Below are positions 7,970 to 64,000 of a stretch of 64,000 nt of DNA, piece by piece; the stretch's first letter is position 1; every line of letters starts with the position of its first letter. The stretch comes from Candidatus Falkowbacteria bacterium. GTDB lineage: Bacteria; Patescibacteriota; Patescibacteriia; CAIXNZ01. The DNA lies in the NCBI GenBank assembly GCA_963774955.1, contig CAVZGV010000003.1, positions 771 through 64,770 on the forward strand, written 5' to 3'. Made by a program: the position numbers and the translations under genes. The notes below the pieces were generated by a model. That model was given only the letters and a program-made list of their open reading frames with translations. It did no database searches and had not been told where the DNA came from.

Positions 7970-7974
7970 TTATA

Positions 7975-41173: not shown

Positions 41174-41182
41174 AATTTAATG

Positions 41183-41191
41183 TGCTATAAT
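41183..41191 (+). promoter_or_regulatory. Extended -10 promoter element (TGcTATAAT) just after the nrdD stop.
   Basis: tgctataat; no good -35. Confidence 0.35.
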
Positions 41192-41358
41192 AGGATTAAC
41201 CCCAAGCAAAGGGCATTCCTTGTAGTCGGGGGTAAGTTGTTTTCGTGGAAAATTCAGTTAAAAAATGATATTCAGCCCGGGGCTATCAAATTAGGCTAAC
41301 AAAAATATTTATATAATTGTTGCCGGTTTTTTTAAACTGGCAGCCAGGTGGGAAATTT

Positions 41359-41499: not shown

Positions 41500-41592
41500 A
41501 GTTCTTTCAAGGTTCGCCTAAGCTTTGATTAGCTGAAGACAAAATAGCTCGGGTGAGCAAGGGAGGGGTCAAATATAGTTCTTTAAATAATA

Positions 41593-41702
41593 CCAACCTC
41601 AACTTGTAGCGACTGTATAGTTAACAGTTAAGTGCGTCAGGGTACGTATTGGTGCGTTTGGCTGTTAACTATATAAACTACTTGCCGAGGTTGGTTTTTT
41701 TG
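41593..41702 (+). terminator. Long imperfect hairpin (~100 nt) ending in a T8 run. It is either a terminator or a structured RNA between the nrdD-associated mini-ORF and nrdG.
   Basis: ccaacctc...tatagttaacag (loop) ctgttaactata...gaggttgg followed by tttttttt. Confidence 0.45.
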
Positions 41703-41781
41703 TTGTAAAATTAGGCTACAAATATAAAAATCGGCTACAAGTGATTACAGCTTGGGTCGTCTAAGTTAAAAATTTCAGTAC

Positions 41782-41816
41782 ATTTGTAATAATTTGTATT
41801 TATTTGTATATTTGTA
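41782..41816 (+). promoter_or_regulatory. Four direct ATTTGTA repeats at 10/11/7-nt spacing, immediately upstream of the nrdG start.
   Basis: cATTTGTAataATTTGTAtttATTTGTAtATTTGTAacatATG. Confidence 0.35.
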
Positions 41817-41820
41817 ACAT

Positions 41821-42516
41821 ATGATTAAGATTGCCGGACTACAAAGAATGACTCTAATGGATTATCCCGGTAAAGTAGCTACCGCGGTTTTTTTGGCTGG
41901 ATGTAATTTTCACTGCGGTTTTTGTCATAATCCGGAGATTGTGGAAATTAATCCGGATCAAGTAATCATTGAGGAAGAGGATTTTTTTGACTTTTTAAAA
42001 AGCCGACAAGGGTTATTAGACGGCGTTTGTGTCAGTGGGGGAGAACCCTTGATTTATGAGGCGTTACCTGAGTTTTTGAATAAAATTAAGTCTTTAGGCT
42101 TTACCATAAAGTTGGATACTAATGGGCTCAATTTTTCTTTACTGCAAAAAATATTAAAAGAAAAGCTGGTTGATTATATTGCTATGGATATAAAAGCATC
42201 TTTGGCCAATTATCATAAAGTTACTAATATAAAGGCTGATTTTAATAATATTGAGCAAAGCATTAAGGCGATTATGGACAGCGGCCTTGGCTATGAATTT
42301 CGCACTACGGTAATGCCCAGATTTCATAATGAAGAGGAAATTGAAAAAATGGCCCGGATGATTAAGGGCGCGAAAAAATACTATCTGCAGAATTTTCGTA
42401 ATCAGAAAACTTTGGATCCTGAATTTAGGGACGATAATTGCTTTACAGAAGAGCAGTTAGCGGCCTTAAGGCAGATTGCCGCCAAATATGTTAATTTGTG
42501 TGAAATAAGAAATTAA
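41821..42516 (+). CDS. nrdG: Anaerobic RNR activating protein (radical SAM).
   Basis: CNFHCGFCHN CxxxCxxC cluster motif near the N-terminus; 231 aa. Confidence 0.8.
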   Translation: MIKIAGLQRMTLMDYPGKVATAVFLAGCNFHCGFCHNPEIVEINPDQVIIEEEDFFDFLKSRQGLLDGVCVSGGEPLIYEALPEFLNKIKSLGFTIKLDTNGLNFSLLQKILKEKLVDYIAMDIKASLANYHKVTNIKADFNNIEQSIKAIMDSGLGYEFRTTVMPRFHNEEEIEKMARMIKGAKKYYLQNFRNQKTLDPEFRDDNCFTEEQLAALRQIAAKYVNLCEIRN

Positions 42517-45135: not shown

Positions 45136-46233
45136 ATGAAGGAGTCAGAATTAATTGTAAATATCAAGGAATTACAGCGGAAAATAAGTGAATCATGGAG
45201 TTTTTTGGAGATTGATCAGAAGCTTGCTGAAGTTGCCAAATTAGACAGCCAAATGAGCCGGTCTGATTTTTGGCAAGACCAGAATCAGGCCAAGTCTGTC
45301 AGTCAAAAGGCTAGTGATTTGAAAACTGAAATTACCACCTGGCAAAAGATTAAAAATGATGTGGAGGAACTTTTAGATATGGCGCAATTGGATGCCAAGG
45401 ATCAGTCAGTTGATTTGCGGGAGGAAATTGAAGCTAATTATGGAGCCTTGGAGAAGAAATTTAAAAATTTAGAATTTTTTCTTTTATTCAACGGTCCGCA
45501 TGATAAAGAAAATGCCATTTTGGCGATCCATGCCGGTACCGGCGGAGTTGACGCCATGGACTGGGCCCAAATGCTTTTGCGCATGTATCTTCGTTATTGT
45601 GATCAAAAAGGCTTTAAAACAGAAATTATTGATAAAATTACCGGGGCTGAGGCCGGGATAAAAAGCGTAGTCATAGAAGTTCGGGGCAGTTATGCTTTTG
45701 GCAATTTGAAATCAGAGCACGGTGTTCATCGTTTAGTTAGGATTTCACCGTTTGACGCTGAAGCTATGCGCCACACTTCTTTTGCCTTAGTAGAAGTGAT
45801 TCCGGAAATCGAGTCAGACCTTAAAATTGACATCAAACCTGAAGATTTGAAAATCGATACTTTTCGCGCTTCAGGCCATGGCGGTCAGAATGTGCAGAAA
45901 ACTGAAAGCGCGGTGCGCATTACCCATTTGCCGTCAAAAATTGTGGTTACCTGCCAGACTGAAAGATCCCAGGTGCAGAATAAGGAACGGGCCATGAAAA
46001 TTCTCAAATCTAAATTGCAGATACTGGCCGAGACTCACGCTGAAGCTGAGAAAAAACAATTGCGCGGTGAGTATTCGGAAGCCGTCTGGGGTAATCAGAT
46101 CCGTTCTTATGTTTTGCAGCCGTATCATCTGGTCAAAGATCACCGGACTGAATTTGAGGAAAGTGATGTGGATGGTGTTTTGGATGGTAAATTGGACGGA
46201 TTTGTAGAAGCATATTTAAAAAGCAAATCTTAA
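45136..46233 (+). CDS. prfB: Peptide chain release factor 2, uninterrupted with no programmed +1 frameshift.
   Basis: SPF tripeptide (UGA/UAA recognition) and GGQ (RASGHGGQNVQK); 365 aa. Confidence 0.85.
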   Translation: MKESELIVNIKELQRKISESWSFLEIDQKLAEVAKLDSQMSRSDFWQDQNQAKSVSQKASDLKTEITTWQKIKNDVEELLDMAQLDAKDQSVDLREEIEANYGALEKKFKNLEFFLLFNGPHDKENAILAIHAGTGGVDAMDWAQMLLRMYLRYCDQKGFKTEIIDKITGAEAGIKSVVIEVRGSYAFGNLKSEHGVHRLVRISPFDAEAMRHTSFALVEVIPEIESDLKIDIKPEDLKIDTFRASGHGGQNVQKTESAVRITHLPSKIVVTCQTERSQVQNKERAMKILKSKLQILAETHAEAEKKQLRGEYSEAVWGNQIRSYVLQPYHLVKDHRTEFEESDVDGVLDGKLDGFVEAYLKSKS

Positions 46234-48783: not shown

Positions 48784-49653
48784 ATGACAATTGATGAAAT
48801 AAAAAAATTAATAAACGATTCTGGTATTAAGCCCAGCAAAGGCAAGGGCCAGAATTTTTTAATTGACGATAATGTTTTGACAAAGATCGTAGCCACGGCC
48901 AATTTGAACGCTGAAGATTGTGTTTTGGAAATCGGGCCTGGCTTTGGCGTTTTGACTCAGGAGTTAATTAGGTCCAGTAAAAAAGTTTTAAGCGTGGAAT
49001 TAGACACTAAATTAATTTTTTATATCAAACGTAAATTTAAGGGCGTTAAAAATTGGGAACTGCTGGAAGGGGATATTTTGAAAATTAAAAATGAACTGTT
49101 GGCGCAAAAGTTAGATTCTACAAAGTATAAGCTGGTGGCCAATTTGCCCTATGCCATCACCAAACCGATCATCCAGAAGTTTTTAAATTATGAGCCCAAA
49201 CCCCAGGAACTGGTTATTTTAGTCCAAAAAGAAGTAGCCGAAAAAATTGTAGCTAAACCGGGGGAAATGAGTATTTTAAGCTTGTCAGTCCAGTATTATG
49301 GCCAGCCGCAAATTGCCGGGTTGGTTTCCCGTGACAGTTTTTTCCCCATACCTGCCGTAGATAGCGCTATTTTAAAAATCGTGTTGCGTCAGACAGTTAT
49401 TCCTTCTGAAATTAGCCAAATTTTAACACCAGACCAGGCCGCCAGTTTTCAGGAAAAAAGGTTCTGGCAACTGATAAAAATCGGTTTTTCTTCGCCGAGA
49501 AAACAGTTGCAAAATAATCTGGCCAATGGGTTTAAAGTTGCCAATACTGAGGTGAAAAATAGGCTGATCAAAGCCGGCTTAAAAGAGCTCTGCCGGCCCC
49601 AAGATTTAAGCCTGTCAGATTGGGCAAAGATTTATCAACAGTTTATGGCTTAA
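48784..49653 (+). CDS. rsmA: 16S rRNA (adenine1518/1519-N6)-dimethyltransferase.
   Basis: GQNFLIDDNVLTKIV...EIGPGFGVLTQ SAM-binding motifs; 289 aa. Confidence 0.8.
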   Translation: MTIDEIKKLINDSGIKPSKGKGQNFLIDDNVLTKIVATANLNAEDCVLEIGPGFGVLTQELIRSSKKVLSVELDTKLIFYIKRKFKGVKNWELLEGDILKIKNELLAQKLDSTKYKLVANLPYAITKPIIQKFLNYEPKPQELVILVQKEVAEKIVAKPGEMSILSLSVQYYGQPQIAGLVSRDSFFPIPAVDSAILKIVLRQTVIPSEISQILTPDQAASFQEKRFWQLIKIGFSSPRKQLQNNLANGFKVANTEVKNRLIKAGLKELCRPQDLSLSDWAKIYQQFMA

Positions 49654-49712: not shown

Positions 49713-50495
49713 ATGCTACCAGGTGAAGAAAAAATTAAGGATTATTTAGAGGAAAAAACCGAAGCAATTGCCAATAAGATCGAAAAAACGCCCATGGAGA
49801 AATTTTTCGTGTTTTTTTTGATTTTAATTACCGTGGCTTCGGTAGTTTTGGGCTATATGCAATTCAAGCAAAACCTGGAATCACCCTTTTATCAATCACG
49901 TCAAAAAATCGTCAGAGCTGAAATCAAGGATAAATATAATATTAATTCGTTAAACTCCAATACTAATTTGCTTGATACTGAAGGTTTAAAAACAAAAGAC
50001 AGTGATCTGGACGGACTGGATGATTATAGTGAAATTTATATTTATGGCACCAATCCTTACCTGGAAGATACTGATAATGACGGTGTTTGGGATAAGCAGG
50101 AGATTATCAATGGTCAGAATCCCAATTGCGCTCAGGGTACAGATTGCGCGACAACCAGTCAGCAATTCAGCGCGGCAGAGAATATGCCTACTTTGGAAGA
50201 AATAATTCCGCCCATTCCAAGTTTTAATGAAAATTTAAATTTAAGCTACGGTGATAATTCAATGGGTTTGCAAAACGAAGATTTTCAGTCAATTATCAAT
50301 CAGCTGCAAAATCAGACTTTGACCCCCGAAGAAAAAGCTCAGGGCTTAGAGCAATTGAAAAATTTAACCCCGGCACAAATACGGGAACAATTAATCTCCA
50401 GCGGCTTTGATCCCGCTATGCTGGATGAGATTGATGATCAGACCTTACAGCAGGCGTTTATGGATCTGGTCAGCGCCTATTCTCAAAACCAATAA
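49713..50495 (+). CDS. Paralog H of the F/G family. It is a bitopic membrane protein with bacterial TSP3-type Ca-binding repeats and lies directly upstream of giant gene I.
   Basis: TM FFVFFLILITVASVVLGYM; repeats DSDLDGLDDYSEIYIYGTNP, DTDNDGVWDKQEIINGQNP. Confidence 0.6.
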   Translation: MLPGEEKIKDYLEEKTEAIANKIEKTPMEKFFVFFLILITVASVVLGYMQFKQNLESPFYQSRQKIVRAEIKDKYNINSLNSNTNLLDTEGLKTKDSDLDGLDDYSEIYIYGTNPYLEDTDNDGVWDKQEIINGQNPNCAQGTDCATTSQQFSAAENMPTLEEIIPPIPSFNENLNLSYGDNSMGLQNEDFQSIINQLQNQTLTPEEKAQGLEQLKNLTPAQIREQLISSGFDPAMLDEIDDQTLQQAFMDLVSAYSQNQ

Positions 50496-50524: not shown

Positions 50525-53500
50525 ATGTCTAAATCAGCGGAAACAAAATATTCCCAAACCACAATTTCAATTTTTGTTTTAGGTTTGGTTCTGACTTTTA
50601 TTTGCGGTGTTGTATTTTTTCTACCTCAGCCGGTTTTGGCTGTGCCGGTAATCCCTGCGACCGGCACCATGCCGTCTACTGACACATTTTTGAATTTGAC
50701 CCAGGCCAATTATTCGGTAAGTGAAGCCGCAAAATTTACTTTTCTACAATCATTGGATGAAACCACGGCATATTTTTTTAATACAGCTTTGGCTTCAGTT
50801 TTAAATGATATTGCCAGGCAATCAGCCACTTGGATCGCCACTGGCGGTGCCGGCCAAAAACCTCAATTTTTAACTGATCCGCATTACTGGGCCAAGACCT
50901 ATGATGCCCAATTGGGCGGTTTGATCCAAACAGCCCTGCAAAGATGGCTGCCTTTTAATATTTGTGATTTTGATCCTAAACTGGCTATCAACCTTACGTT
51001 GTCCAATCCTTTTACCCTACCGCCTGAATCAGAAGGCCAAGTGCCGGGTAATCCTGGTAAAACCTGTAGCTGGACGGAATTGCGTGATAAATGGACGGCT
51101 TTTTTTGCTGATCCTTTGAAAACTTTTCAGTTCAATTTGAGTCAGGGTTCTGGCAGTCTGGGTTCTCGAACTACTGATTTAAATACCATGGTTTTGGATA
51201 ATTCAATTCTGGGTAAATGGGACCAAAGATTTTGTAATAGCAGTCAGCCGGCGCCGGTCACGGCTTGCGATAATAAAAGTTTTGTCTCTGCTGATTATTG
51301 CCCGGCAGTAAGTCCCGGCGGAACTCAAGTTTTAACTACTTTGTATGCTACTCCGCTGACGACTCAGGATATAATTTGTACTCAAGAAAAAGAAATTCAA
51401 AAATTTCTTGGAGAGTATGTTAAAAATATTAATGATTTAATGGAGGCTTTGCGTTTTGATCTGGATTTCGCAGTAAATTGTAAACAAACTGCAGCCGGTA
51501 TCTCCGGTCAAATGAAAATCTGGAAATTATTGCAGGAGAAGGGACTTAGCGAAACTTATAGTATAACCAGTTTTGATTGCAGTCTTAATGAATTCGGAGA
51601 AGAACAGGTTGCGGAAGTCGGTAGGGCCTATCAGCAGGTTATTGAGTTATTCCGCGGGACTGAAAACGAAGGCATAAAATTCAATATGAGCAATCTGAGG
51701 AAATGCGCTTATGGTAATTATGACAAATTAGCTACGTGTCCGGCAATTTCAGGCGCGGGCACTTCCAGCCAATGGAAAACGCTGGTTGAACAGCTGGGTA
51801 TTAAGCCTTGGGATGATATAGATTTAGCCCCCATTCAATTGGCATATGCCGAACAATTTGAAAAAGATTTTTGCGCGGTGGCCTCAAATCAGGCAGCTTA
51901 TTGCCCGCCAAGCCCGGCTGACACCAACAGCTTAGATAATATAAAAACTGTGCAAATCCCTAATTATGTTGAAGGCAGGTACAAATCCATTTATTATACC
52001 CAGGTTAAAGAAAAGACTGATTATGTAATTAAAATCATTGAGACCATGGATAGTTATTACGGTGAAATAAGCAGGGAAGTGGCCAAGAATTTTGCGCCCT
52101 CAAATTGGGCTGATGCGGCTGCGTATGATGCTGGTATGGCCAAAGAGTATTTCAGTGATGTCAAAGAAACTCAGACACTTGATTATGTGACCAAGACCAT
52201 TGCCAATCAGGGCATTGGTGGTTACGTTTCATCTTTATTGCAATCAGGTCTGGATAACGGCTGGGTGGGGCAGACTGAAACAATTTCCGGTAAAAGAAAA
52301 AGTCCGCCGTCATTAGTGGAAAATCAGGCTAAAGAATCAATGACCACAACCTATAAGGAACAGGTAAAAAGTTATACCAAAAATGTTTTAGCTGATGCCT
52401 GGGCTATTTTTCAGGCCACTTTATTCGATGAATTAACCAAGAATCTACTGGCCAATCTTTTTTCCAGCAAGACTCAGTCCCAAGCAAGAAATCAAGCTAA
52501 TGTCGTGAAAAAAAGCGCCACTGAAGTTTTGCCGATTAAAACGCTGAGTCCTTATGAACAGGAAATCAATACTGCCGAAGGTTTTGCTGATTATGCCCAA
52601 AAAACCGTGGAAAAATATGCTGCCAAAATCGCTTCAGGGGCTGATTTAAATCTGCTTTTGGATTTTCAGATGACGACTGCCAATACAGCTAATCCCAATT
52701 TATATAACGGAGTTATTGATAAGAACTTTGTTCAGGCGATTAACCAAAAAATGACTATTGGCGAAGCCATGGCTGACGGTAAATTAGTGGCTAACCGTAA
52801 ATTTTCTTGGGATGGAGAGCTTGCAGATAATACTTATAGTTTGGATAATATTAAAAAATTAAGAAAGGCGCGGGTGGTTCCCTTGGGTCTGGAATTAGCC
52901 ATAGAACTTATTCGTGATTGTAAATACAGACAAGGTCTGGGGTTGGGCGATTTTAGTGATATTAATTTTAACGGCGGTAATCCTGATGGCTTTAATGATC
53001 CGTTGCAGCCGTTTAAAACTCAAAGGCTGCAAAATTGTATATTTAGAATTCCAAATAGCGTAGAGACGGAACAATTAGCTAAGGACTATAATAGTCAAAA
53101 ACTTAATCAGGTAATTGAGGCCAATCTGGATGATGTTGTCAATGGCTTTAATCAGGTCGGTTCCGGAATTTGCGGTGATTTTGATTTTGGGGAATCACCA
53201 TTCTGTAATTTGGTTGATCCTAACTGGGTGCTGAAAATTCCGCCCACTCGCTGCGGTTTGAAATCAGACACGCCGTTATGGGGAGAAGTGATTCAAAGTA
53301 ATGAATCCGGTCAGCGTTATGATTATTGCCCGGATTTTATGAGTTGTCTGGAAGAAGACGGTAAGGGCGGTTGTATTAATGATCGTTACGGCTATTGCGT
53401 CAAAGAACAAAATCTCTGGCAGTTTGGTTCCGGTTATTGCCCGGCTGCTTTTACCAGCTGTAAAAATTATACTTTAGTTACTTCAGCCGGTGATTTGCCC

Positions 53501-56500
53501 GTTTCCTATCTGAAAAACACTTTGTCAGGCAATGATATTTGCGGGCCAAATAACGCAGGCTGTTTGTGGTATTCCAGTAAATATGCCGGCGGCTTTTGGA
53601 ACAGCGACCAGAGAATTTATTTAAATCGTTATGTTGCAAGTTGTGACCGTACCGCTGCCGGCTGTACTGCCATGTCTTTATATCGCGATCCGGCTAACAA
53701 TCTGGTGCCTGATTCTTCGTTTGAATACACTAAAGCTAATTCTTTCCCGGCTAATTGGGAGTTATATTTAAAGCAGGATATAACCGCCCAGGCGTCTCCG
53801 ACTTGTGCGGGTACAAATTATGCCAGCTGTTCCAATTATAATTATGCTTTATTGCCGGCAACTACGCAGACTGATGTAACTATCAATCAGCTTGCATGTC
53901 TGGACAATGGCGGTACCTGGGAGAATATCTGTTCTGACACAACGAAAGTTACGGAACAGGAATGTACTGATGCCGGAGGAGTTTGGGGCAATAGATGTTC
54001 AAACGCTTCTAAGATTGTTGATCTGGCTGACTTGGCCGGAGAAAAAACTGATTGCATTGCTAGGGAGGGCACTTTTAAACAGTATTGTTTAACCAGTATT
54101 TTAAAATATGATTTATGTTCAAACCCTCAGTTCAATGATATTGAGGGTGGGGATTCTGCTCAGGTGCAATGCGAAGGTCATGGTGGTACCTGGAAAACCG
54201 AGTGCCAGACAGAAGCCGGGATTATACCTGAATTAAGCGCCAGTGGGATGCAGGCTGACTGCCAATCTGTCCTCAACGGCGGTAGTTGGCGTGAATATTG
54301 TCAGGGCGCATTACTATATGGTTCCAGCCGTGACCAGTGCTTGAAGCTGCAGGGTGAGTGGCGTGGTTATGGTCCTTTTAGCGATGTAGCTAAAGTCAAT
54401 AGTGACGCTATTTTAACTTTGGACGGTGCTAATAAATTAGAAATCGATATAAGCGGCTTAACAGCTGATCAGCAATTACAGCTTATGTACCGCAGCCAAT
54501 TTCAGGAATTGAATAAGAGTTTAACTAAAGCAGGTGATGTGTATACAGCGACTGCTTATTTACGGGCCAGCCATTCGCTTTATCAGCCAATAACTTTCAG
54601 TTTGTCCAAGACTCCGCCGACTGAATTAAACAGTCAAAATGTTGTTTTATATGATAATAATATTCAGGCTTCCAGTACGCTGGTGACCACAACCTCTGGC
54701 ACAGAATTGGATTTAACTATTACTTTGCCGGGTAATGAGGGCGCCGGCAGTAAAATTTATCTGGACGCGGTTGATCTGTATTTAAATACGGTTGATCAGG
54801 TTACTAATAATGATTTTGTCAGATTAAGTTCTAATTATGACAATAATAGCAAAGTATATTATAAAATACCGCCGCAAAGTCTGGCTTGTCGGGGTTATGG
54901 ACCGGGTGATCCACCCCCTGTGCTTAAAGGGTTAACCAATAGCACTATGTGTAACGGTTATTGGGATGAAAGTGGTATTTTTACGGGCATTAAAAATATT
55001 TGTTATAAATATGGACCTGATAATGATGCTTGTAATGATTATACGAAAGTCTGCGAGGCTGAAGAGGTAGGTTGTCAGCTGTACAATCCTCAAAATAATG
55101 ATCCTGAAGTCCCGGGCGTTATTGCGACCACTGATTTTTGTCCGGCTGAATGTGTCGGTTATAATACCTATACTCAGGAGCCGACTTTGTACGATCCCAA
55201 GCCAGAGCCTTTATATAATTACTTTATTCCTCAAACAGCCAGTGCCTGCAGTGTTGACCAGGTTGGCTGTACTCAATTTACGAATTTGGATGCAGCGACT
55301 ATTGGCGGGGAAACCGTTCAGTATTTCACTTATCTCAAACAATGTATCAAACCGAACCTGGGGCTGGGTGAAAAATTCTTCTATTCCTGGCCGGGTTTGG
55401 ATCGTCCGCTTGATCCTTCTCAGATCATAAAATATGAATTTCAGGCAGATTCAAACGGTGCTCCCAAGCTTTTTGATGATTTGACTTATACTGATGATTT
55501 GCAGAAAGATTGTCGTTCTTCTTTGGGTAGTGCTGATTTGTATTGCGTTAAATTTTATGATGATAACGGTATAATTTATTATCGTGATATCCGCAGGGTA
55601 ATCTCGGTTTCAGCGAATTGTCATCCATATTTAAAGAGTTTACAGGCTAATGCTTCAGCTGAACGGCTGATAATTGAGCAGAAAAATTGCACCATAACTA
55701 ATGGCCGCTGGCAGGCAGTCGGAGGTCAGGATGGCTGTGTTTATGACGCCATTCCCAATGAAGGGCTTCAATGTCAGGCGGCAAATAATGGCTGTCGGGC
55801 TTATATCGGCAATCGCGGCAATAATGTTTATGTTACTTTGTTTGATACTTTTGAAGATACCGATTCTTTAGACTGGTATTCTGGGGAGACCGGTTTGACA
55901 ACTTCTGGGCTGACCAGATCAGGTGAATCAGTGGCGGTTGGCGGTCATTCCATGCAGGTAGCAGCAGGCGTCAGTATCATTCATAACTATATTGATATTG
56001 AGAAGGGCGAGGTTTATACTTTGTCTTTCTGGGGTAAAACTTCGGATCCGGCCGGCAATGTTTTAGAAATTAAATTCAGCGGCGCACCTGCTGATCAGGC
56101 CTTTGCGACCATTGTTTCTCAGAAAGTCAGACTGACTTCAGACTGGAAAAATTATATAATAGGTCCGGTTAATATTACCTGGGATGGCTTGGAAAATAAT
56201 AGTTTAATATTTAACGGTATTAACGGCCAGATTAATCTCGACAATATTTTGCTTCGGGTTGTTCGTGATAATGTTTATGTGGTTAAAGACAGCTGGGTAA
56301 CGCCGACAAGTTGTGATCGTAATATTTACGGCCGGATTGAACCGCAAAATCCTCATCCAATGCTTGGCTGTCAGGCTTATGCCGATCCTTATTCCAGAAT
56401 TTATAATTTGAAATCGTTCAGCAGTTTATGTCGAAATAGCGTGGTTGGCTGTGAGCTTTTATTTGATACTAAAAATTCTCAAAATCCTAATAGTCAGAAA

Positions 56501-59500
56501 TATAACGAGGACACTGAGTCAAGCCTGGACGATGTGCAAATTCCGGCTGATAATTTAATCAGCGTGGTTTTGGATAGCAATTTTACCTGTAGTCCTGCCG
56601 TTAAAAGTTGTCAGAGACTGGGCGTGGCCCTTAATGCCAATACGGCCCAGCAAAGCTTTGCTGACATTTATTTACTAAATGATCCAGATAAATATATCAA
56701 TGTCCCCAACGCAATTTTATGTAATGATCCTGCTTATGGCTGCAGTGAATTGGTCAATGATCAGGGTATCAGTGAATATTATAAAATTGAGCCGAATAAA
56801 CTTTGTGCTTATTCCAAGGGCGAAGCCAATACTGGCAGGCCTGAAGGTTGGTATAAAAAGAACTCCAATTTCAGTTTAGGTTGCGGTTCCTTTGATATTT
56901 CCGAAAATCTTAAATTATCAGAAGCTGACTGTCAACTTAAAGGCGGACGGATTAGTACTAATTATAACCAATGCGTGGCTGTTTTATCAGGAGTCAGCAA
57001 GGTAGAAGATTGTACCAGAGTTAAAGGTGAATGGCTGGCCGGTGAAAAAATTTGTTTGGCTTGGCCTTTCAGTATTTATAAAACTTATGAAGCCAATAAA
57101 TTTCAGGGCTATATCGGCGAATGTGACTCGGCTTTTTCCGGCTGTAATGCTTTTACAGATATCAACCCCAATTTTATTTTTAATAGTAATTTTGAATCAG
57201 TCGGCGAAAACAACAGTGTTTCTGCCTGGCAGAGCCGTTTTACCAGTTCCGGCGGCAGGTTATTTGAAACTGCCAGCGCTCGGGCCGGCAATCAGTCAAT
57301 TAGATTGATCAAACGTACGGCTGCTGATTGTCCGGAGACTGCCACCGCGCCCGGCTGTACTGCCCAGCCTTATGCTTTAAATCAGCAAATCAGCAGATTG
57401 GAAAAGGGTAAAACTTATAAGATTAGTTTTTATTATCGTATGCCGTCTGATTCGAGCGGTCGAGGTGAAACTTGCGAAAAGCCGCAGGCAGCTATGACTT
57501 TTAATCCGTTAGGTTATTGTTTGAACAGTACTTATCAGACTGAAACCGCCTGCAGTACCGGCGGTTCCAGCTGGGTAGCCTTGCCCAAAGAGCAGCTTTA
57601 CGTATTTGAGCCTGAAAGCTCCTGGAAAAAAGTCGAAGCTTATTACACTGTGCCTTCCGGTCGTTGTGGTGATGAGATTCACACCAATCAAGCTGAGTGT
57701 AATGCTGCCAACCAAACCTGGACAGAATATAATTTCTTACTGGATTACGATCTTAGTTTATATGCGCCGTTAAACGGTTATTGTTTGGTCGGTAATAAAA
57801 AAGTGTATCAGGATTCAAGCTTAAACTGGATTTTAAATCAGTCTGCTTGTACTTCGTTAGGCGGTACTTGGCAGGGGAATTGTCCGGAATCATATGTCCT
57901 CTATGATTTGGTGGAAGTAAAAGAAGACAGCGAGGATAATTATTCGGTTATTGATGATGATGTTAACATTAACCGTTCCAGCTGTAATGGTGTGGTTAAT
58001 TGGGATAATGGCTGTGTACAATTTTTAAATAATAATTATGATTCCTTTGAGATCCTAAAAGTTCAGCGTGACAGAAAATGTGAACAATGGGCAGTCTGTG
58101 ACAGTAATTGCAGTGATCCCCAATATAAAATCAAGGAAGATTGCGAGAATAATCAGAAAATCTGGGATACTAATATCTGTACAGCCACTAATTTGTGCCA
58201 GGGTTCGGCCTCTGATGTCTGCACCACTTATGCTCCCAAAAAGGATAATGTGCGTTATGACCTGGCCGAACAGCCTTTGGAATTAAAACGAATTACCGAT
58301 TCTGCTTTGCATCAGGGTTATATTTACCGTTTTGGCACTGCGGCTCTTGATCGGCTGACCCAGTGGCGTGGCGGGGATTATTCCGGTTATTCTATACCTT
58401 ACCGCTATCCGCTAGAACAGGAATTGAATTTTGATTCAGTAGAGAAATTTGCCACCTATGATCAGATTAATGATTTGGATAATAAAGTGGATAAGGATAA
58501 ACGCTATCTTTTGCCGATCTGTAAAGTCTTCCCGGCTCAAGATTCACCTTTCCCGGCAGAAATGGCCAAGGTTCCCAAATATAAAAATTTACTGAATTTA
58601 TTCAGCCAGAGTTATGAAGTTACTGAACTGGGTAATTTGTGCTCTTATGAACGTGCGGATTTTTCCGGCATGACAGTATATCTGCCTATCTTGGACAGTC
58701 AGAAAGTAAAAAGAGTCTGTTCCAGTCCGGTTTCCAAGCGAGGGTTGGATTGTACTTATGGTGGCGAAGAGGTTTGTAAAATACCAGGCATGAAAAACAG
58801 TGATGTTAATCGTTGTGAGGATATCGAGGATATCAAACAATTTTATGGCATGGAAAACATGTGTCTGGAATTTGACCGTTTAAATCCGCTTTACGGAGAT
58901 ATTTATAAAAATATTTACAATACAGGAATTTATCAGCCATATGCCTGTCTGACATCTTATCCGTTTGGTTCTGATTTATGCCCGATGCATAATTCTCCTT
59001 CAACCTGCCAGACTAATGTTTTCTGCCTTTGGGATACTGATAATGACAAATGTATTTTGAATTTTGCCAGGTTGAAGCCGGTTTTATCCGAAGTTACTGG
59101 TGTGGCTAATGAAATTGCTGATGATTCTCCCAATTATATATTTTTCTCAACTGAAGATGGCAGGCTGAGTCTGGACGGTAAATGTTGTACAGACCAAACT
59201 AGGGCTGTTGCCGGCAATAATACAATTGCCTTGGGTGAAAAGGTAGATCAGGGTGATAATACTTATACTTGCCAGCCAATGTCACTGGGCTCCTATGATG
59301 ACTGCAGGGTAAAAGTGACTGATGTCACAGGCCAGATCAGTGATCCGCTTCAGATTTCGCCTTTTGAAGTGGTCATGTTGTCTGAAGTTAGTCCTGTACC
59401 CGCAGTGCTTAGTGTTGATTACGCTAATTACGTTTTTGCTTCAATGATTTCAGGCCCGATTACTTATCCGGGGGATTGTAGCAGTCCGACCCTTACTGCC

Positions 59501-60226
59501 AACAGCGGTATTAATACTATAGAATTTAAGAATTTGACTGCTGATTTTCATAATAACTGTGTAATTCTAATTACAGATAATAGCGGTAGTGTTCCGGTTG
59601 ACTATACTTTGCTTGTTAGCCCATTTACAGTCGGGGCGATTGAAGAGGTTACTCCGGTATTTACTCCTTCTACCAACCAAACACCGAGTTATACTTTCAA
59701 ATCTCATGTTATGGGAACCATTGCTTATGAGGGTGATTGTACCAATAGCAGTGTCAAGACGGTTACAGCAGAAATGGTCGGCAATGATATTACGCTTGCC
59801 TTCAATAAAATGAGCTTTGGTGTTCACAGTAACTGTAAAATAAAAGTAACCTCGGCCTCGACGCCACCGGTAACATTAACCTTAGCGGTTACGAGTTTTG
59901 AGATTAAAGATATTATGGAAATTCAGGGTATGCCCAACCCGGCCTATCAGCCTACTAGCGTCTATGTTTATAAGTTTCGCTCTGCTTTACCTGGCACAAT
60001 CTCAGTTGTCGGCCCCTGTTTCGCTTCTACCAGTATTGTTATCAAACTAGACGGAATCAATCAGAATTATTCGTTAGACTTTAAAAATTTAGATCCAGGT
60101 ACATACGGTCCGACTCAAGACGCCGCCCATAAATGTCAGGTCAAAGTCACTGATCCATCGGCAGTCGTGCATACGCTTGATGTTTCCGCTTTTCAGGTAT
60201 TTACCGCCCCAGCCTTAGGCGTCTAG
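50525..60226 (+). CDS. Giant surface protein I (3233 aa). It has an N-terminal signal-anchor and a very large Cys-rich ectodomain with at least 3 CBM4/9-like domains, recurring C-x(3-4)-GG[ST]W-x(3)-C mini-motifs and five tandem ~88-aa Ig-like repeats at the C-terminus.
   Basis: Intact 9.7-kb ORF. TM ISIFVLGLVLTFICGVVFFLP. CBM-like NLVPDSSFEYTKANSFPANWE (~53700), FDTFEDTDSLDWYSGE...VYTLSFWGK (~55830-56270), FNSNFESVGENNSVSAWQS...KTYKISFYYR (~57180-57650). Ig-like repeats at 59100-60220, each with GDC...NC.I.VTD. Confidence 0.8.
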   Translation: MSKSAETKYSQTTISIFVLGLVLTFICGVVFFLPQPVLAVPVIPATGTMPSTDTFLNLTQANYSVSEAAKFTFLQSLDETTAYFFNTALASVLNDIARQSATWIATGGAGQKPQFLTDPHYWAKTYDAQLGGLIQTALQRWLPFNICDFDPKLAINLTLSNPFTLPPESEGQVPGNPGKTCSWTELRDKWTAFFADPLKTFQFNLSQGSGSLGSRTTDLNTMVLDNSILGKWDQRFCNSSQPAPVTACDNKSFVSADYCPAVSPGGTQVLTTLYATPLTTQDIICTQEKEIQKFLGEYVKNINDLMEALRFDLDFAVNCKQTAAGISGQMKIWKLLQEKGLSETYSITSFDCSLNEFGEEQVAEVGRAYQQVIELFRGTENEGIKFNMSNLRKCAYGNYDKLATCPAISGAGTSSQWKTLVEQLGIKPWDDIDLAPIQLAYAEQFEKDFCAVASNQAAYCPPSPADTNSLDNIKTVQIPNYVEGRYKSIYYTQVKEKTDYVIKIIETMDSYYGEISREVAKNFAPSNWADAAAYDAGMAKEYFSDVKETQTLDYVTKTIANQGIGGYVSSLLQSGLDNGWVGQTETISGKRKSPPSLVENQAKESMTTTYKEQVKSYTKNVLADAWAIFQATLFDELTKNLLANLFSSKTQSQARNQANVVKKSATEVLPIKTLSPYEQEINTAEGFADYAQKTVEKYAAKIASGADLNLLLDFQMTTANTANPNLYNGVIDKNFVQAINQKMTIGEAMADGKLVANRKFSWDGELADNTYSLDNIKKLRKARVVPLGLELAIELIRDCKYRQGLGLGDFSDINFNGGNPDGFNDPLQPFKTQRLQNCIFRIPNSVETEQLAKDYNSQKLNQVIEANLDDVVNGFNQVGSGICGDFDFGESPFCNLVDPNWVLKIPPTRCGLKSDTPLWGEVIQSNESGQRYDYCPDFMSCLEEDGKGGCINDRYGYCVKEQNLWQFGSGYCPAAFTSCKNYTLVTSAGDLPVSYLKNTLSGNDICGPNNAGCLWYSSKYAGGFWNSDQRIYLNRYVASCDRTAAGCTAMSLYRDPANNLVPDSSFEYTKANSFPANWELYLKQDITAQASPTCAGTNYASCSNYNYALLPATTQTDVTINQLACLDNGGTWENICSDTTKVTEQECTDAGGVWGNRCSNASKIVDLADLAGEKTDCIAREGTFKQYCLTSILKYDLCSNPQFNDIEGGDSAQVQCEGHGGTWKTECQTEAGIIPELSASGMQADCQSVLNGGSWREYCQGALLYGSSRDQCLKLQGEWRGYGPFSDVAKVNSDAILTLDGANKLEIDISGLTADQQLQLMYRSQFQELNKSLTKAGDVYTATAYLRASHSLYQPITFSLSKTPPTELNSQNVVLYDNNIQASSTLVTTTSGTELDLTITLPGNEGAGSKIYLDAVDLYLNTVDQVTNNDFVRLSSNYDNNSKVYYKIPPQSLACRGYGPGDPPPVLKGLTNSTMCNGYWDESGIFTGIKNICYKYGPDNDACNDYTKVCEAEEVGCQLYNPQNNDPEVPGVIATTDFCPAECVGYNTYTQEPTLYDPKPEPLYNYFIPQTASACSVDQVGCTQFTNLDAATIGGETVQYFTYLKQCIKPNLGLGEKFFYSWPGLDRPLDPSQIIKYEFQADSNGAPKLFDDLTYTDDLQKDCRSSLGSADLYCVKFYDDNGIIYYRDIRRVISVSANCHPYLKSLQANASAERLIIEQKNCTITNGRWQAVGGQDGCVYDAIPNEGLQCQAANNGCRAYIGNRGNNVYVTLFDTFEDTDSLDWYSGETGLTTSGLTRSGESVAVGGHSMQVAAGVSIIHNYIDIEKGEVYTLSFWGKTSDPAGNVLEIKFSGAPADQAFATIVSQKVRLTSDWKNYIIGPVNITWDGLENNSLIFNGINGQINLDNILLRVVRDNVYVVKDSWVTPTSCDRNIYGRIEPQNPHPMLGCQAYADPYSRIYNLKSFSSLCRNSVVGCELLFDTKNSQNPNSQKYNEDTESSLDDVQIPADNLISVVLDSNFTCSPAVKSCQRLGVALNANTAQQSFADIYLLNDPDKYINVPNAILCNDPAYGCSELVNDQGISEYYKIEPNKLCAYSKGEANTGRPEGWYKKNSNFSLGCGSFDISENLKLSEADCQLKGGRISTNYNQCVAVLSGVSKVEDCTRVKGEWLAGEKICLAWPFSIYKTYEANKFQGYIGECDSAFSGCNAFTDINPNFIFNSNFESVGENNSVSAWQSRFTSSGGRLFETASARAGNQSIRLIKRTAADCPETATAPGCTAQPYALNQQISRLEKGKTYKISFYYRMPSDSSGRGETCEKPQAAMTFNPLGYCLNSTYQTETACSTGGSSWVALPKEQLYVFEPESSWKKVEAYYTVPSGRCGDEIHTNQAECNAANQTWTEYNFLLDYDLSLYAPLNGYCLVGNKKVYQDSSLNWILNQSACTSLGGTWQGNCPESYVLYDLVEVKEDSEDNYSVIDDDVNINRSSCNGVVNWDNGCVQFLNNNYDSFEILKVQRDRKCEQWAVCDSNCSDPQYKIKEDCENNQKIWDTNICTATNLCQGSASDVCTTYAPKKDNVRYDLAEQPLELKRITDSALHQGYIYRFGTAALDRLTQWRGGDYSGYSIPYRYPLEQELNFDSVEKFATYDQINDLDNKVDKDKRYLLPICKVFPAQDSPFPAEMAKVPKYKNLLNLFSQSYEVTELGNLCSYERADFSGMTVYLPILDSQKVKRVCSSPVSKRGLDCTYGGEEVCKIPGMKNSDVNRCEDIEDIKQFYGMENMCLEFDRLNPLYGDIYKNIYNTGIYQPYACLTSYPFGSDLCPMHNSPSTCQTNVFCLWDTDNDKCILNFARLKPVLSEVTGVANEIADDSPNYIFFSTEDGRLSLDGKCCTDQTRAVAGNNTIALGEKVDQGDNTYTCQPMSLGSYDDCRVKVTDVTGQISDPLQISPFEVVMLSEVSPVPAVLSVDYANYVFASMISGPITYPGDCSSPTLTANSGINTIEFKNLTADFHNNCVILITDNSGSVPVDYTLLVSPFTVGAIEEVTPVFTPSTNQTPSYTFKSHVMGTIAYEGDCTNSSVKTVTAEMVGNDITLAFNKMSFGVHSNCKIKVTSASTPPVTLTLAVTSFEIKDIMEIQGMPNPAYQPTSVYVYKFRSALPGTISVVGPCFASTSIVIKLDGINQNYSLDFKNLDPGTYGPTQDAAHKCQVKVTDPSAVVHTLDVSAFQVFTAPALGV
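59100..60220 (+). repeat. Five tandem Ig-like coding repeats (~255-270 nt each) at the C-terminus of protein I.
   Basis: Repeated units ...ISPFEVVMLSEVSPVPAVLSVDYANYVFASMISGPITYPGDCSSP...NNCVILITDNSGS.. / ..VSPFTVGAIEEVTPVFTPS...GDCTNSS...SNCKIKVTSAS.. / ..VTSFEIKDIMEIQGMP...GPCFAS...HKCQVKVTDPS... Confidence 0.65.
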
Positions 60227-60341
60227 ACCAAGCCCAACTTTATAACCTTATTCTAAAATTAACATATGGGACTCAAATTCCGGAATAAAATTAAAAAAAC
60301 ATCTGCGAATCTCGGCTTTTGTCTTTGTATTTTTCGGTAGC

Positions 60342-63300
60342 TTGTTTTTAGTAAATAATGCTTTAGCCGCTCCATGTGTATTACCTAATAAATGTTTGGG
60401 AATTTGTCCAAGTGGTTCAACCCCATTAACAACCCAGACTTGTACAGCACCAGAAGGAAGCATGGATGTAGCAAGTTGTTGTCCACCAGTGGCTTGTCCT
60501 ACAGCTCAAGGTTATTCTTGCAAGGCTTCGACTACCTGTTCTGATTTAACCAAGTTTGATGTCTTGAATCCGACTGACTGTGAAAATACCGCTGGTAATA
60601 TTTGCTGTAAGGAAAAAGTTGCGTCAGATGGCGCTGCCTGTCAATCTTCGACTGATGCTACTAAAACTGGTAAATGCCAGGCGATCGCTTGCACGTCAGC
60701 TAATCCAGAAATTAAACCTGTAAAAACAGCTTGTCCTACGGGTAACTTTTGTTGTACTACGGCAGCTGCTGCTACCCAGGCAACCTGTAAAGATGCGGGT
60801 GGCACCTGTAAGGATAAAGATGCAACTTCCGGTAAATGTCCGGGAGAGGAACAGCTAATTGCAACGCAGAAAACCTGTAAGGAGTCTGGTGATGGTAAAG
60901 ACAATCAGATTTGTTGTAAAGCTGCGGCGTCTACTGCCGGTGATCAGTCTGGTGCAGGCGGGGGAGATAGCGGTGGTGGCTCTGATCCGTTTACCAGAAT
61001 TTTTAATATTTTCATTGCTTGTCTGACTTACAGTATTTCGTTGCTGATTCATTTGGCCGCCTGGTTAGCCGGTCAGATCGTCGTGCTTTTAATGGAAGTT
61101 TTGGTTTTTATTTCCGGTTATAACAGTTTTATCAGAAATTCCTATGTCAGCGAAGGCTGGCGCATCTTGCGCGATCTGGTCAATATGTTTTTCGTGCTGG
61201 GTATGCTTTTTATCGCCTTTGCTACGGTTTTAAAAATTGAAAAATATTCCTGGAATAAGCTTTTAGGCAAATTACTGATGATGGCGGTTTTGGTTAATTT
61301 CAGCAAAACAATCTGCGGTCTTATAATCGATTTTTTTCAGGTGTTATTAATGACTTTTGCCAATGCGTATAAAGATATCACTGCCGGTAATATTTTTTCC
61401 GGTTTGGGTATGGTGGATTGGTTCAAAGTCCAGTCTCAGGCTGTGGCCGGAAATGTTTCAGCCGGTGTCCAGCTGGGCATGATTGCTTCCGCCTTTTTGG
61501 GACTTATTCTGGCCATTGTGTCCATGATTGTCATTTTTATATTCTGCGTGATTCTGATCGTCAGGATTGTCGGTTTGTGGGTTTTGGTGACATTTTCACC
61601 CCTGGCGTTTTTTGCCTATACTTTTGAAGGCACTAAAGGACTGGGGACTATTTCTTCCACCTGGTGGAAAGAATTTTTGGAATATTGTATGGTCGGCCCG
61701 TTTGTGGGTTTTATTTTATGGATTTCCGTGGCAACACTGCCCAAGCTTGATGTTAACCAGATGATACCCGGTAGCTGGTATGATACCAGTAAAAGAGAAG
61801 GCTTACAGGTGACTTTTTCCGAAGCCGGCAGTATGGATAGGATTTTAAAGTATATGATGTCTATAGTCACCATGATTGTCGGGCTGGGTTATGCCAAGAA
61901 ATTCAGTATTATCGGCGCCAGTGCTTTATCAGGCGTAGCTGAAAAATTCAAAGATCAGACAGTGGGCCGGGCTCAGCGTTTTGGCAAGTCAGCTGGAGAG
62001 ACGGCCATGGCTCCGGTAAAAGGTGCCATGAAAGGTGTCGGTGATGCTATGCGTGATAATAAATATTTAAGGTATATGACCACTGAAGGCCGTAAAGAAG
62101 CAGCTCAGGTTCATGAGGCAAATGCGCGCGGTAAATTCGGTCCGCGGACAGGTGAGAAGGAAAGAATGATGCGGCAGATTACTGAGGCGGATGTGAAAAG
62201 ACTGGATGCGCAACAAGCATTTGTCAATCCCAACGCGTTTAACGGGAAATTAAAAGAAGCTTTTGACAAAGGCGATTACAGAAATGCCAGAGCCTTGATG
62301 AATGAAGGCGCCAAAAAAGGCTGGATCGGCACAAATGATATTGATACATTTAAGGATAAATTCCGCGATAAAATGGGTGACAAGGCACACTTTGAATTTA
62401 CTGAGCAATTAGGCAAAGATTTCAAAGAGGCAACCGGCAGACATTTGCGCACTAATGACGAATATATTTCACCTGAAGGTAAGGTCATGAAAAAATCAGA
62501 TTCAGTGGAAAAAGAATACAAAGATGCAGTCGGCAGAATGAGCGCCAGTCAGCAAAGCGATATGGCGGAGAATTCTAAAGTATTTAAAAATGAAAATGGT
62601 AATAATAAATATTGGAAAGAAGATATCCTTGCTTTTACCGGCAATGAAATGAATTCCGGCCGTTGGACTCAGAAAGCCAGAAATAATATGCGCGACGGTA
62701 TTGATGAAATCAGAAAAGATCCCAACAAGATGAAAGAATTCACTAAGGATCAGCTCCAAGATCTTAATGTTTTGTATGAAGCGGCAACCGCAGAGTACGA
62801 GGGTCTTAACCGCTCTAAGGATGCAGCTGGCAATAAGTCTCAAGGTAAGGTGGCCTTTAATCATCAAGATTTAATAAATGATCCAAGCCGCGGTATTGAT
62901 TTGACAACTGCTGGCACAAACGGCGCAACTGCAGTCTCAGATGATGACATTGATCATTTAAAACCCAAAGAAGATGAAGGGGCGCCATTATTACCGACAA
63001 GAATTCCAGGAGCGCCTCAAGCGCCAGCTTCCAGGATTTTTGATGTTTTAGGAAAGAAAACGAGTGACAGACTTCTGGCTGCTACGGGTAAACCCGTTAC
63101 CAGAACAGCTGAAGCTGCTAGTCGTTTTGGCAGGCAAGTAATTCAATTTGCTAAGAAAAAGCCGTTCAAAACAGGAGAGGAAGGGTCTTATGTTCCTCCA
63201 GAAGCCAAGAAAATTGGCGGTACCGAAGGCATTAGCGATGTTGATGTTAATACAATTATTGATGAACAAGGCAGGGATGGTGTTTTACAATTTGAAGATA

Positions 63301-63872
63301 AACAAGGCAATTCAAGAATGACAGCTGCTGGAACTTTTTCCGCTCAAAATAGAGAAATCGCCATAAAGGCATTAACTAAAGAGTTGACAGATAAAGGTGT
63401 CAGAGCAGATGCAGCAAGTAATAAAGCCGGACAAATGGTCAGGTTTAAGGAAGATGAATATAAACATCAACAAGGTGTTCAAAATGTGCATGAGAATGTA
63501 CTTGTAAATATCGATTTAGCCGGAGGCAATTCTCCAGCGAGTATTAATGATCTTAATCAACAGGCTAAATTCGTTTATGGAGATACTGATAAGGAAAGAG
63601 CAGTAAAAGCGGCCAATGTTAATCAGTCTGATATATCTAAAGCAATTCATGAAGTCAGCAGCGCCTTTGATAAATACCAGTCTGAATTAACTAAACGTGG
63701 AGTAGAAATGGATCAAGCTGCAGCTGCCCAGGTCCAGGCTGCTTTAGCTGATATGAGAAATCAAAGTCGAACTACGAAAAATTTATCCGGTCAAGAAAAG
63801 ATGACCATGGTTGATAATCTTACAATTACGGTTGCGGCAATGCAGGATGGCATTTTATTAAAGAAAAAATAA
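60342..63872 (+). CDS. VirB6/TrbL-like polytopic membrane protein J (1176 aa ORF). The true start is probably the ATG at 60266, giving a complete signal peptide if the A7 run is read as A6. It has an N-terminal Cys-rich extracytoplasmic domain, a Gly/Ser linker, a ~450-aa core with 5-6 TM helices, and a ~600-aa hydrophilic K/E/D-rich C-terminal domain.
   Basis: TM helices IFNIFIACLTYSISLLIHLAAWLAGQIVVLL, MFFVLGMLFIAFATVL, LLGKLLMMAVLVNFSKTICGLIIDFF, LGMIASAFLGLILAIVSMIVIFIFCVILIVRIVGLWVLVTF, FLEYCMVGPFVGFILWISVATL. This layout resembles TrbL/VirB6-family proteins with extended C-termini. The upstream ATG at 60266 is in the +1 frame and encodes MGLKFRNKIKK, which joins onto HLRISAFVFVFFGSLFLVNNALA|AP. 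Confidence 0.6.
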   Translation: MFLVNNALAAPCVLPNKCLGICPSGSTPLTTQTCTAPEGSMDVASCCPPVACPTAQGYSCKASTTCSDLTKFDVLNPTDCENTAGNICCKEKVASDGAACQSSTDATKTGKCQAIACTSANPEIKPVKTACPTGNFCCTTAAAATQATCKDAGGTCKDKDATSGKCPGEEQLIATQKTCKESGDGKDNQICCKAAASTAGDQSGAGGGDSGGGSDPFTRIFNIFIACLTYSISLLIHLAAWLAGQIVVLLMEVLVFISGYNSFIRNSYVSEGWRILRDLVNMFFVLGMLFIAFATVLKIEKYSWNKLLGKLLMMAVLVNFSKTICGLIIDFFQVLLMTFANAYKDITAGNIFSGLGMVDWFKVQSQAVAGNVSAGVQLGMIASAFLGLILAIVSMIVIFIFCVILIVRIVGLWVLVTFSPLAFFAYTFEGTKGLGTISSTWWKEFLEYCMVGPFVGFILWISVATLPKLDVNQMIPGSWYDTSKREGLQVTFSEAGSMDRILKYMMSIVTMIVGLGYAKKFSIIGASALSGVAEKFKDQTVGRAQRFGKSAGETAMAPVKGAMKGVGDAMRDNKYLRYMTTEGRKEAAQVHEANARGKFGPRTGEKERMMRQITEADVKRLDAQQAFVNPNAFNGKLKEAFDKGDYRNARALMNEGAKKGWIGTNDIDTFKDKFRDKMGDKAHFEFTEQLGKDFKEATGRHLRTNDEYISPEGKVMKKSDSVEKEYKDAVGRMSASQQSDMAENSKVFKNENGNNKYWKEDILAFTGNEMNSGRWTQKARNNMRDGIDEIRKDPNKMKEFTKDQLQDLNVLYEAATAEYEGLNRSKDAAGNKSQGKVAFNHQDLINDPSRGIDLTTAGTNGATAVSDDDIDHLKPKEDEGAPLLPTRIPGAPQAPASRIFDVLGKKTSDRLLAATGKPVTRTAEAASRFGRQVIQFAKKKPFKTGEEGSYVPPEAKKIGGTEGISDVDVNTIIDEQGRDGVLQFEDKQGNSRMTAAGTFSAQNREIAIKALTKELTDKGVRADAASNKAGQMVRFKEDEYKHQQGVQNVHENVLVNIDLAGGNSPASINDLNQQAKFVYGDTDKERAVKAANVNQSDISKAIHEVSSAFDKYQSELTKRGVEMDQAAAAQVQAALADMRNQSRTTKNLSGQEKMTMVDNLTITVAAMQDGILLKKK

Positions 63873-64000
63873 AAATAAATTAATTAATCATCAAGTGTTA
63901 TGGCAGAATTAAGTACAATTTTAGCGCAATTAAATATTTCAGATAAAATTAAGGAATTGACAAATAAATTTCAGATTGACCCGTCTAAACTGGATGTTGT

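Follow-up and report, generated by a model that had tools for sequence, protein, structure and literature searches.

A probable VirB6-type membrane subunit with a cysteine-rich N-terminal domain and a long charged tail, encoded in a Candidatus Falkowbacteria chromosome

Background

The DNA analysed here, referred to below as the window, is a stretch of 64,000 nucleotides (nt) from Candidatus Falkowbacteria bacterium, a member of Patescibacteriota (assembly GCA_963774955.1, contig CAVZGV010000003.1, positions 771 to 64,770 of the forward strand). Close to its end lies a gene on the + strand with an open reading frame (ORF) of 1176 codons, which extends from a TTG codon at 60342 to a stop codon at 63870-63872, and whose product combines a Cys-rich N-terminal domain, a conserved core of hydrophobic helices and a long charged tail. 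An earlier inspection of the DNA letters (the original prediction) had proposed that it is a VirB6/TrbL-like protein. We conclude with high confidence that it encodes a VirB6-type polytopic membrane subunit of a chromosomal Patescibacteria type IV secretion system (T4SS), related to the monoderm MPF-FATA machines, and the identification is supported by the fold of the core and by the presence of VirB3, TrsD and VirB4 downstream of the gene in its relatives.

Among Patescibacteria, Southlakia epibionticum has been found to possess an unusual T4SS that is closest to Gram-positive conjugative systems, has no recognisable relaxase or coupling protein and, in this one species tested, is essential for epibiotic growth (Wang et al. 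2023, PMC10633639); the virB6 gene detected in this organism is also essential (PMC12102498, citing PMC10633639). A survey of the phylum described a monophyletic VirB4 clade related to MPF-FATA, together with TrsD, VirB3/PrgI and VirB2-like pilins (Quinonero-Coronel et al. 2025, PMC12102498). Searches with hidden Markov models (HMMs) in that survey counted 480 VirB6 homologues against 2,474 virB4 genes; most of the former match the MPF-T VirB6 profile and a few the PrgH profile, and 304 of the 480 are located near virB4. According to the same survey, ksgA is often nearby, loci of the class ABY1 hold comF, recG and radA, and VirB5 and VirB7-10, which are typically absent from monoderm T4SSs, are rarely found near virB4 in Patescibacteria; its Table S3 gives, for one genome, the order VirB6, one unlisted gene, VirB3, TrsD and VirB4 (PMC12102498). 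The substrate and the direction of transport of the Patescibacteria T4SS have not been established (PMC10633639, PMC11665869). A separate notion, that of the 'extended VirB6', has been defined in a review as a protein with at least five hydrophobic helices and large hydrophilic domains of unknown role (FEMS review PMC12857230).

Results

Layout of the protein

The three parts foreseen by the original prediction, namely a Cys-rich ectodomain, a polytopic core and a long charged tail, are all present in the ORF. The Cys-rich, probably extracytoplasmic domain (60369..60917, +) carries 24 Cys residues within amino acids (aa) 10-192, which are arranged with a repeating C..C..C..C..CC spacing into four tandem six-Cys modules: aa 12-47 (60375-60482), aa 52-89 (60495-60608), aa 100-138 (60639-60755) and aa 149-192 (60786-60917). 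Each module follows the pattern C-x5-11-C-x3-9-C-x11-13-C-x5-11-CC, and at least four of them were obtained in none of 2000 shuffles of the domain. A Gly/Ser/Ala-rich linker (aa 193-215; 60918..60986, +), with the sequence ...AAASTAGDQSGAGGGDSGGGSD, leads to the conserved VirB6-like polytopic helical core (aa ~216-530; 60987..61931, +). By hydropathy, both the protein and the family alignment have hydrophobic segments at about aa 222-262, 279-297, 313-343, 380-428, 445-466 and 503-520, and the long helices of the AlphaFold2 (AF2) model coincide with these six. The expectation of at least five hydrophobic helices has thus stood, while the conserved core measures ~310 aa rather than the ~450 aa initially assumed. 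What had been noticed as a double-length segment of ~40 aa corresponds to a continuous hydrophobic stretch of 53 aa (aa 376-428; 61467..61625, +), seen in the hydropathy of both the protein and the family, with an invariant Arg408 at its centre; the alignments with TrwI and PrgH fall in this part of the core.

No Cys follows C449 in the protein, and the charged C-terminal tail (aa 561-1176, within the feature recorded at 61932..63869, +), which starts with a K/R-rich stretch after the last hydrophobic helix, is Cys-free. It comprises 616 aa, in good agreement with the ~600-aa charged domain described before, and contains 82 K+R and 83 D+E over aa 641-1176. Its model consists of two helical domains with pLDDT of about 80-90, domain 1 at ~aa 605-820 (62154-62801, +) and domain 2 at ~aa 950-1176 (63189-63869, +), connected by a Pro/Gly-rich disordered linker of ~130 aa (~aa 821-949; 62802-63188, +). 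Pfam searches at E <= 10 with the tail, the halves of the tail and the Cys-rich domain returned nothing credible, and a database search with the tail alone returned no match, the parent protein included, its low-complexity charge having probably swamped the word pre-filter.

We infer that the N-terminus faces outwards and that the tail is cytoplasmic, which fits the signal peptide described below, the 24 Cys residues that precede the core, the lack of Cys in the tail and the K/R-rich stretch at its beginning. Several models in which the N-terminus is out and the C-terminus is in are compatible with two loops of the protein, one K-rich (aa 298-312) and the other acidic (aa 344-376). VirB6 of A. 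tumefaciens has a reported topology with the N-terminus outside and the C-terminus in the cytoplasm.

Relatives of the protein

A search of 5.8 billion proteins returned at least 294 matches, with E-values that run from 0 down to 1e-48, so that the ORF is no product of chance, and a profile of the core (A2) compared with 1.84 billion cluster representatives matched 22,216 of them at E <= 1e-3 and 6,319 at E <= 1e-30; the family is very large. The named relatives are almost all from Patescibacteria, mostly Parcubacteria, Buchananbacteria, Falkowbacteria, Uhrbacteria, Magasanikbacteria and 'Patescibacteria group'. Many related contigs bear the title 'uncultured Gammaproteobacteria', and there are also records titled 'Planctomycetota' and 'Bacillota'; since those of their loci that were checked share the Patescibacteria-type layout, we take them to be mislabelled metagenome-assembled genomes; with these counted as such, the family is confined to Patescibacteria.

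Features were counted relative by relative in 120 relatives among the matches listed. The core is conserved in all of them, with ~25 invariant positions that include G272, W273, R277 and N281; N319, F320 and S321; G326, D330 and Q333; R408, W413, S419 and P420; and W441, F445, G452, P453, F457 and W460. These can be written as the motifs GW..RD..N, NFS, G...D..Q, R....W.....SP and W...F......GP...F..W. A long tail is likewise present in 120/120, at 383-917 aa (median 568) and with a median of zero Cys, and a signal-peptide-like N-terminus in 101/120. The Cys-rich N-domain is found in 6/120; the same six-Cys module occurs in the relatives P0003, P0007 and P0024. The sequence of the tail diverges fast: of 234 relatives searched iteratively, 28 gave a match to its domain 1 (aa 575-825) and 6 to its domain 2 (aa 950-1176). 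Together with the Cys modules, the tail makes up the lineage-specific extras of this gene.

Similarity to VirB6 in sequence and structure

The similarity of the sequence to TrbL/VirB6 is marginal, and the structural evidence is clearer. When 33 relatives were scanned singly, PF04610 (TrbL) was the sole recurrent Pfam family, with sub-threshold matches in six (best E 2.4e-4); the relative P0030, itself found at E 1e-58, scores 25.7 bits (E 1.1e-5), just short of the PF04610 cut-off of 25.9. The HMM comparison with TrbL/VirB6 suggested at the outset has thus given a signal below threshold among the relatives and none for the window protein. An hhalign comparison of the family with an alignment of 120 TrwI relatives yielded P = 1.9e-4 and a probability of 47% over 69 columns, centred on R408..W413..S419-P420-L (SPLAF), which stands opposite to GPLFI of TrwI. 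The AlphaFold2 model of the core, built from 76 sequences, has pLDDT 84.7 and pTM 0.78, and in a Foldseek search of PDB with this model the top four matches are all TrwI chains. VirB6 and DotA are among the matches of the fold searches, with no transporter among the top ones, and the modelled core shows the VirB6 fold.

A reading as a solute transporter of the major facilitator superfamily (MFS) or the drug/metabolite transporter (DMT) type could be drawn from the multiple hydrophobic helices and from the NCBI record names of two relatives, P0002 (MCX6744782.1, 'MFS transporter') and P0006 (MBN1326058.1, 'DMT family transporter'). However, no MFS, EamA/DMT or other transporter model of Pfam or NCBIfam matches the window protein, P0002 or P0006 at permissive E-values, the fold searches give VirB6 and DotA instead, and the synteny with VirB3/VirB4 is fixed. 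An MFS or DMT identity, which has neither profile nor fold support, was therefore rejected as extremely improbable. A ComEC competence channel was rejected as well, as the window protein has no Pfam or NCBIfam match to it. An unrelated transporter family as the best hit, which the original prediction had set against its own proposal, did not emerge; none of the MFS, DMT and ComEC models matched.

Gene neighbourhood

Synteny was studied in 80 related genome loci and one metagenome locus. A fixed order was found in the relatives: ksgA, a gene for a TSP3-repeat protein, a gene for a giant CBM_4_9 protein, the VirB6-like gene, a gene of ~460 aa without known function (g463), PrgI/VirB3, TraC-like/TrsD, a VirB4-type P-loop ATPase, a protein of ~220 aa (g220) and often ComFC, followed by RecG in the locus L001. 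Of the 55 related loci whose downstream flank measures 6 kb or more, g463 is present in 53, PrgI/VirB3 in 53, TraC-like/TrsD in 52, VirB4 in 50 and g220 in 46; the VirB4-like ATPase that the original prediction had proposed to look for is thus there in 50/55. The full order, ComFC and RecG included, is present in L001 and L003-L009, and the Pfam matches PrgI, TraC_F_IV and P-loop_TraG/AAA_10 were confirmed in L002 and L003. TrsD is itself similar to the N-domain of VirB4. L002 is the closest relative locus; within the stretch of the VirB6-like gene that is shared with it, nt identity is 85%.

In the window, the three upstream members of this order were identified with Pfam as ksgA (48784-49653, +), the gene for the TSP3-repeat protein (49713-50495, +) and the gene for a giant, surface-type, Cys-rich protein of 3233 aa with a CBM_4_9 domain (50525-60226, +). 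The same order of ksgA, TSP3, giant and VirB6-like genes is found in L001 and L003-L010, and in 36 of the 49 loci with sufficient flanking sequence the VirB6-like gene is immediately preceded by a homologue of the giant. Downstream, the next gene is cut by the window end after its first 33 codons (63900..64000, +); these resemble the N-terminus of g463 of L002, of which the gene is the positional equivalent. The peptide quoted for it earlier is correct, but 101 nt of it, from the start at 63900, lie in the window, not 130. As the window ends too early to show the remaining genes, these are taken from the relatives.

A different explanation of the locus is that the protein is a dedicated membrane partner of the upstream giant, such as an anchor or an export/assembly factor, and that its resemblance to VirB6 is that of a generic helical bundle. 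The linkage to VirB3/TrsD/VirB4 (50-53/55) is tighter than that to the giant (36/49), two independent structure methods choose the same natural protein family, and no other Pfam family than PF04610 recurs. Moreover, the two roles are compatible, as the giant could serve the same T4SS as an adhesin or be one of its substrates. We therefore consider a role solely as a partner of the giant very unlikely, and retain the assignment of the protein to the VirB6 type.

Several observations weigh against this assignment. The window protein has no match in Pfam or NCBIfam, and PF04610 is absent even at E <= 10. Comparisons of the family with the single sequences of TrwI, PrgH and TcpH by hhalign are weak or insignificant, and the core-only profile A2 found nothing among the PDB sequences (the full-length alignment A1 retrieved only coiled-coil noise from these, drawn by the charged tails). 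The window itself stops short of VirB3 and VirB4, the count of membrane spans is not fixed, the cytoplasmic placement of the C-terminus is itself deduced, and database and Pfam searches revealed no recognisable homologue of the tail.

As for the remaining members of the order, g463 (~460 aa; L001 12990-14381, L002 5840-7273) has no match in Pfam or NCBIfam and is sometimes duplicated, and g220, which follows VirB4, has no Pfam match and only weak, sub-threshold NCBIfam matches. Both are parts of the T4SS cluster to which no role has been assigned. In two places of the window, at 49713-50495 and at 32448-33248, a TSP3-repeat protein is encoded beside a giant gene.

Start of the gene and the interrupted reading frame

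The frame of the long ORF does not open before 60246, and TTG 60342 is the first canonical start codon in it. The original prediction had placed the start at ATG 60266, which lies in the +1 frame, not in that of the long ORF, and gives MGLKFRNKIKKTSANLGFCLCIFR, ending at TAG 60338-60340. Removal of a single A from a run of seven (A7, 60293-60299) fuses this ATG in frame with the long ORF, and the frame-corrected N-terminus reads MGLKFRNKIKKHLRISAFVFVFFGSLFLVNNALA|AP, a standard Sec signal peptide, in which a basic n-region and a hydrophobic h-region of 15 residues precede an A-x-A cleavage site. Since the corrected N-terminus aligns with the intact N-termini of P0003 (MEFNSVLKFKKFLWSLAFVFVFFGG..., in the N-terminal sequence MEFNSVLKFKKFLWSLAFVFVFFGGLFFAGTALA) and L002 (MEFNSRIKFNK...), 60266 is the homologous start, and the gene is not a single open frame in the present assembly. 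The start given earlier is thus the right one by homology, but it is out of frame by one base. The feature is recorded here as a homologous ATG start with a Sec-type signal peptide (60266..60368, +), with the frame interrupted by a single surplus base in the A7 run. TTG 60342 was rejected as the true start, because the Cys-rich domain would then have no export signal.

We regard an assembly error, rather than a true pseudogene, as the likely cause of the break in A7, because the essential gene ftsZ in the same window is also frameshifted. It occupies 36658-37763 (+) as three overlapping ORFs in three frames (36658-36984, 36944-37354 and 37335-37763), and its translation read across the frames is that of a normal FtsZ, interrupted by at least two indels, neither of which is at a long homopolymer. 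Alternatively, the gene could be truly inactivated or phase-variable, with A7 as the site of a slipped-strand frameshift that removes the signal peptide, so that the product would be unmade or unexported in the sequenced population. A homopolymer frameshift at the very start of a surface-exposed protein would fit this explanation, the public gene call P0001 begins only at Met41, and the A7 run is absent from L002. On the other hand, the breaks in ftsZ away from long homopolymers point to assembly indels, the remaining 3.5-kb ORF is intact, has no further stops and encodes a protein 71% identical to P0002, and the T4SS is essential where tested (PMC10633639), which together make inactivation improbable.

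Two further ORFs of the window, of 3077 aa (11053-20286) and 1436 aa (20177-24487), lie in different frames and overlap by 110 nt (20177-20286). The second lacks a pilin module, and the two may be a single gene of ~4500 aa split by another indel.

Pilin-fusion genes and the wider window

Far upstream of the VirB6-like locus there are three pilin-fusion genes on the + strand, at 5004-7514 (836 aa), 8440-11028 (862 aa) and 11053-20286 (3077 aa). Their products have an N-terminal T4SS_pilin/TrbC-VirB2-like domain (PF18895, E 4e-10 to 5e-8) fused to Big_5, Laminin_G_3 and TIG ectodomains, and probably represent VirB2-type pilin modules with adhesin-like domains, as parts of the T4SS to which the VirB6-like gene belongs. 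The term pilin-module adhesins used in the original prediction is borne out by the N-terminal pilin domains at 5004-20286, but these genes form a cluster separate from the VirB6-like locus. Its further statement that they share one island with the latter is not supported: they lie ~30-55 kb upstream, and the interval is occupied by the housekeeping genes ybeY, dgkA, ftsZ, nrdR/nrdD/nrdG, htrA and prfB, as well as by genes for a sugar epimerase and a GT2 glycosyltransferase, and by ksgA.

The composition is uniform across the window, all its large genes are on the + strand, it contains no tRNA genes, and neither a relaxase nor a coupling protein was seen among the window ORFs scanned. The idea of a mobile island was rejected, given the housekeeping neighbours, the uniform composition and the lack of tRNA genes. 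The cluster of nrdR, nrdD (anaerobic ribonucleotide reductase) and a radical-SAM activase (38547-42516, +) is ordinary, and the region is core chromosome. The prfB gene (45136-46233, +) is a single ORF of 365 aa with a full match to TIGR00020 (release factor 2), and it appears to have no programmed +1 frameshift of the kind found in many bacteria.

Discussion

A possible way of working of the VirB6-like protein can be outlined as follows. The Sec signal peptide would export the N-terminus, and the four disulfide-rich six-Cys modules would form an extracellular extension particular to few lineages. The core would oligomerise in the cytoplasmic membrane into a platform or channel above the VirB3-VirB4 motor, by analogy with VirB6 of R388, a pentamer at the base of the stalk. 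The Cys-free tail of ~615 aa would stay in the cytoplasm and act there as an arm that docks or scaffolds either the ATPase module or substrates. The transport carried out by the Patescibacteria T4SS may be export of effectors, biogenesis of pili or uptake of nucleic acids.

A much bolder proposition, which we consider unlikely as a whole, is that the family is the near-universal and largely undetected VirB6 of Patescibacteria, with special roles of its tail, of its N-domain and in import. It starts from the 480 VirB6 homologues against 2,474 virB4 genes found with HMMs in the literature, compared with the more than 22,000 representative clusters matched by the present family. According to it, the fast-evolving tail could take over the role of substrate receptor or coupling protein, because most such systems have neither a VirD4-type gene near virB4 nor a relaxase; contacts with the host cell or with the pilin-fusion adhesins could be made by the variable extracellular part, here the four disulfide-rich modules; and import of nucleic acid from the host, in place of effector export, might be what the machine does, an idea prompted by the conservation of ComFC and RecG beside the cluster.

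The gene adds one more member to a component that is already described, as is the system it belongs to, and the current picture is unchanged by it, since published work describes the T4SS and Table S3 of the survey gives the gene order (PMC12102498, PMC10633639). Its value is in annotation: a VirB6-like subunit that Pfam and NCBIfam fail to see, and that public records mislabel as MFS or DMT, can be recognised by its fold, by its fixed place before VirB3, TrsD and VirB4, and by its invariant motifs. The long, Cys-free and divergent tail, common to all the relatives counted, provides a concrete experimental target for the question of what docks to the machine.

Comparison with known systems

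The described Patescibacteria T4SS (PMC12102498) shares with the present locus the phylum, the chromosomal location and the order VirB6, one gene, VirB3/PrgI, TrsD and VirB4, as well as ksgA, upstream in the window, and comF/recG, downstream in the relatives as in ABY1. In contrast, neither the four six-Cys modules of the present protein nor the Cys-free tail of 383-917 aa seen in 120/120 relatives is described there, and while the 480 VirB6 proteins of the survey were found with HMMs, the present protein escapes Pfam and NCBIfam. The part of the supplement of PMC12102498 that was searched contains none of the accessions of the close relatives, so that membership of these among the 480 is unconfirmed.

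TrwI, the VirB6 of R388 (PDB 7O3V, 8RT9, 8RTD), likewise has its gene clustered with those of VirB3 and VirB4, and the sole stretch that aligns is R408..W413..SPLAF against GPLFI of TrwI. Unlike the window protein, to which it is 11-13% identical, TrwI has only 342 aa, has neither a Cys-rich ectodomain nor a long tail, and works in a diderm machine with VirB5 and VirB7-10.

With the extended VirB6 proteins of Rickettsiales and TcpH of pCW3, the window protein has in common at least five helices, a large hydrophilic C-proximal domain and a total length of ~800-1400 aa; its core with the 616-aa hydrophilic domain fits the definition of PMC12857230, as the original prediction had claimed. However, the core has no detectable relation to TcpH of pCW3 (hhalign E 0.23, 36 columns), and the tail has none to anything. 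The label 'TcpH-like' given to the protein earlier is therefore apt for the layout but not as a statement of homology, because the direct comparisons with TcpH and PrgH are not significant; the likeness to the extended VirB6 proteins is one of layout and does not demonstrate a shared origin of the extensions.

PrgH of pCF10, the MPF-FATA prototype, differs in its small size (266 aa) and lack of extensions, and its hhalign comparison with the family is not significant (E 0.099), with a weak alignment over the region of the SPLAF/APLFV helix. It shares with the present system the monoderm setting and the place of the VirB6-like gene, just upstream of PrgI (VirB3) and the VirB4 ATPase.

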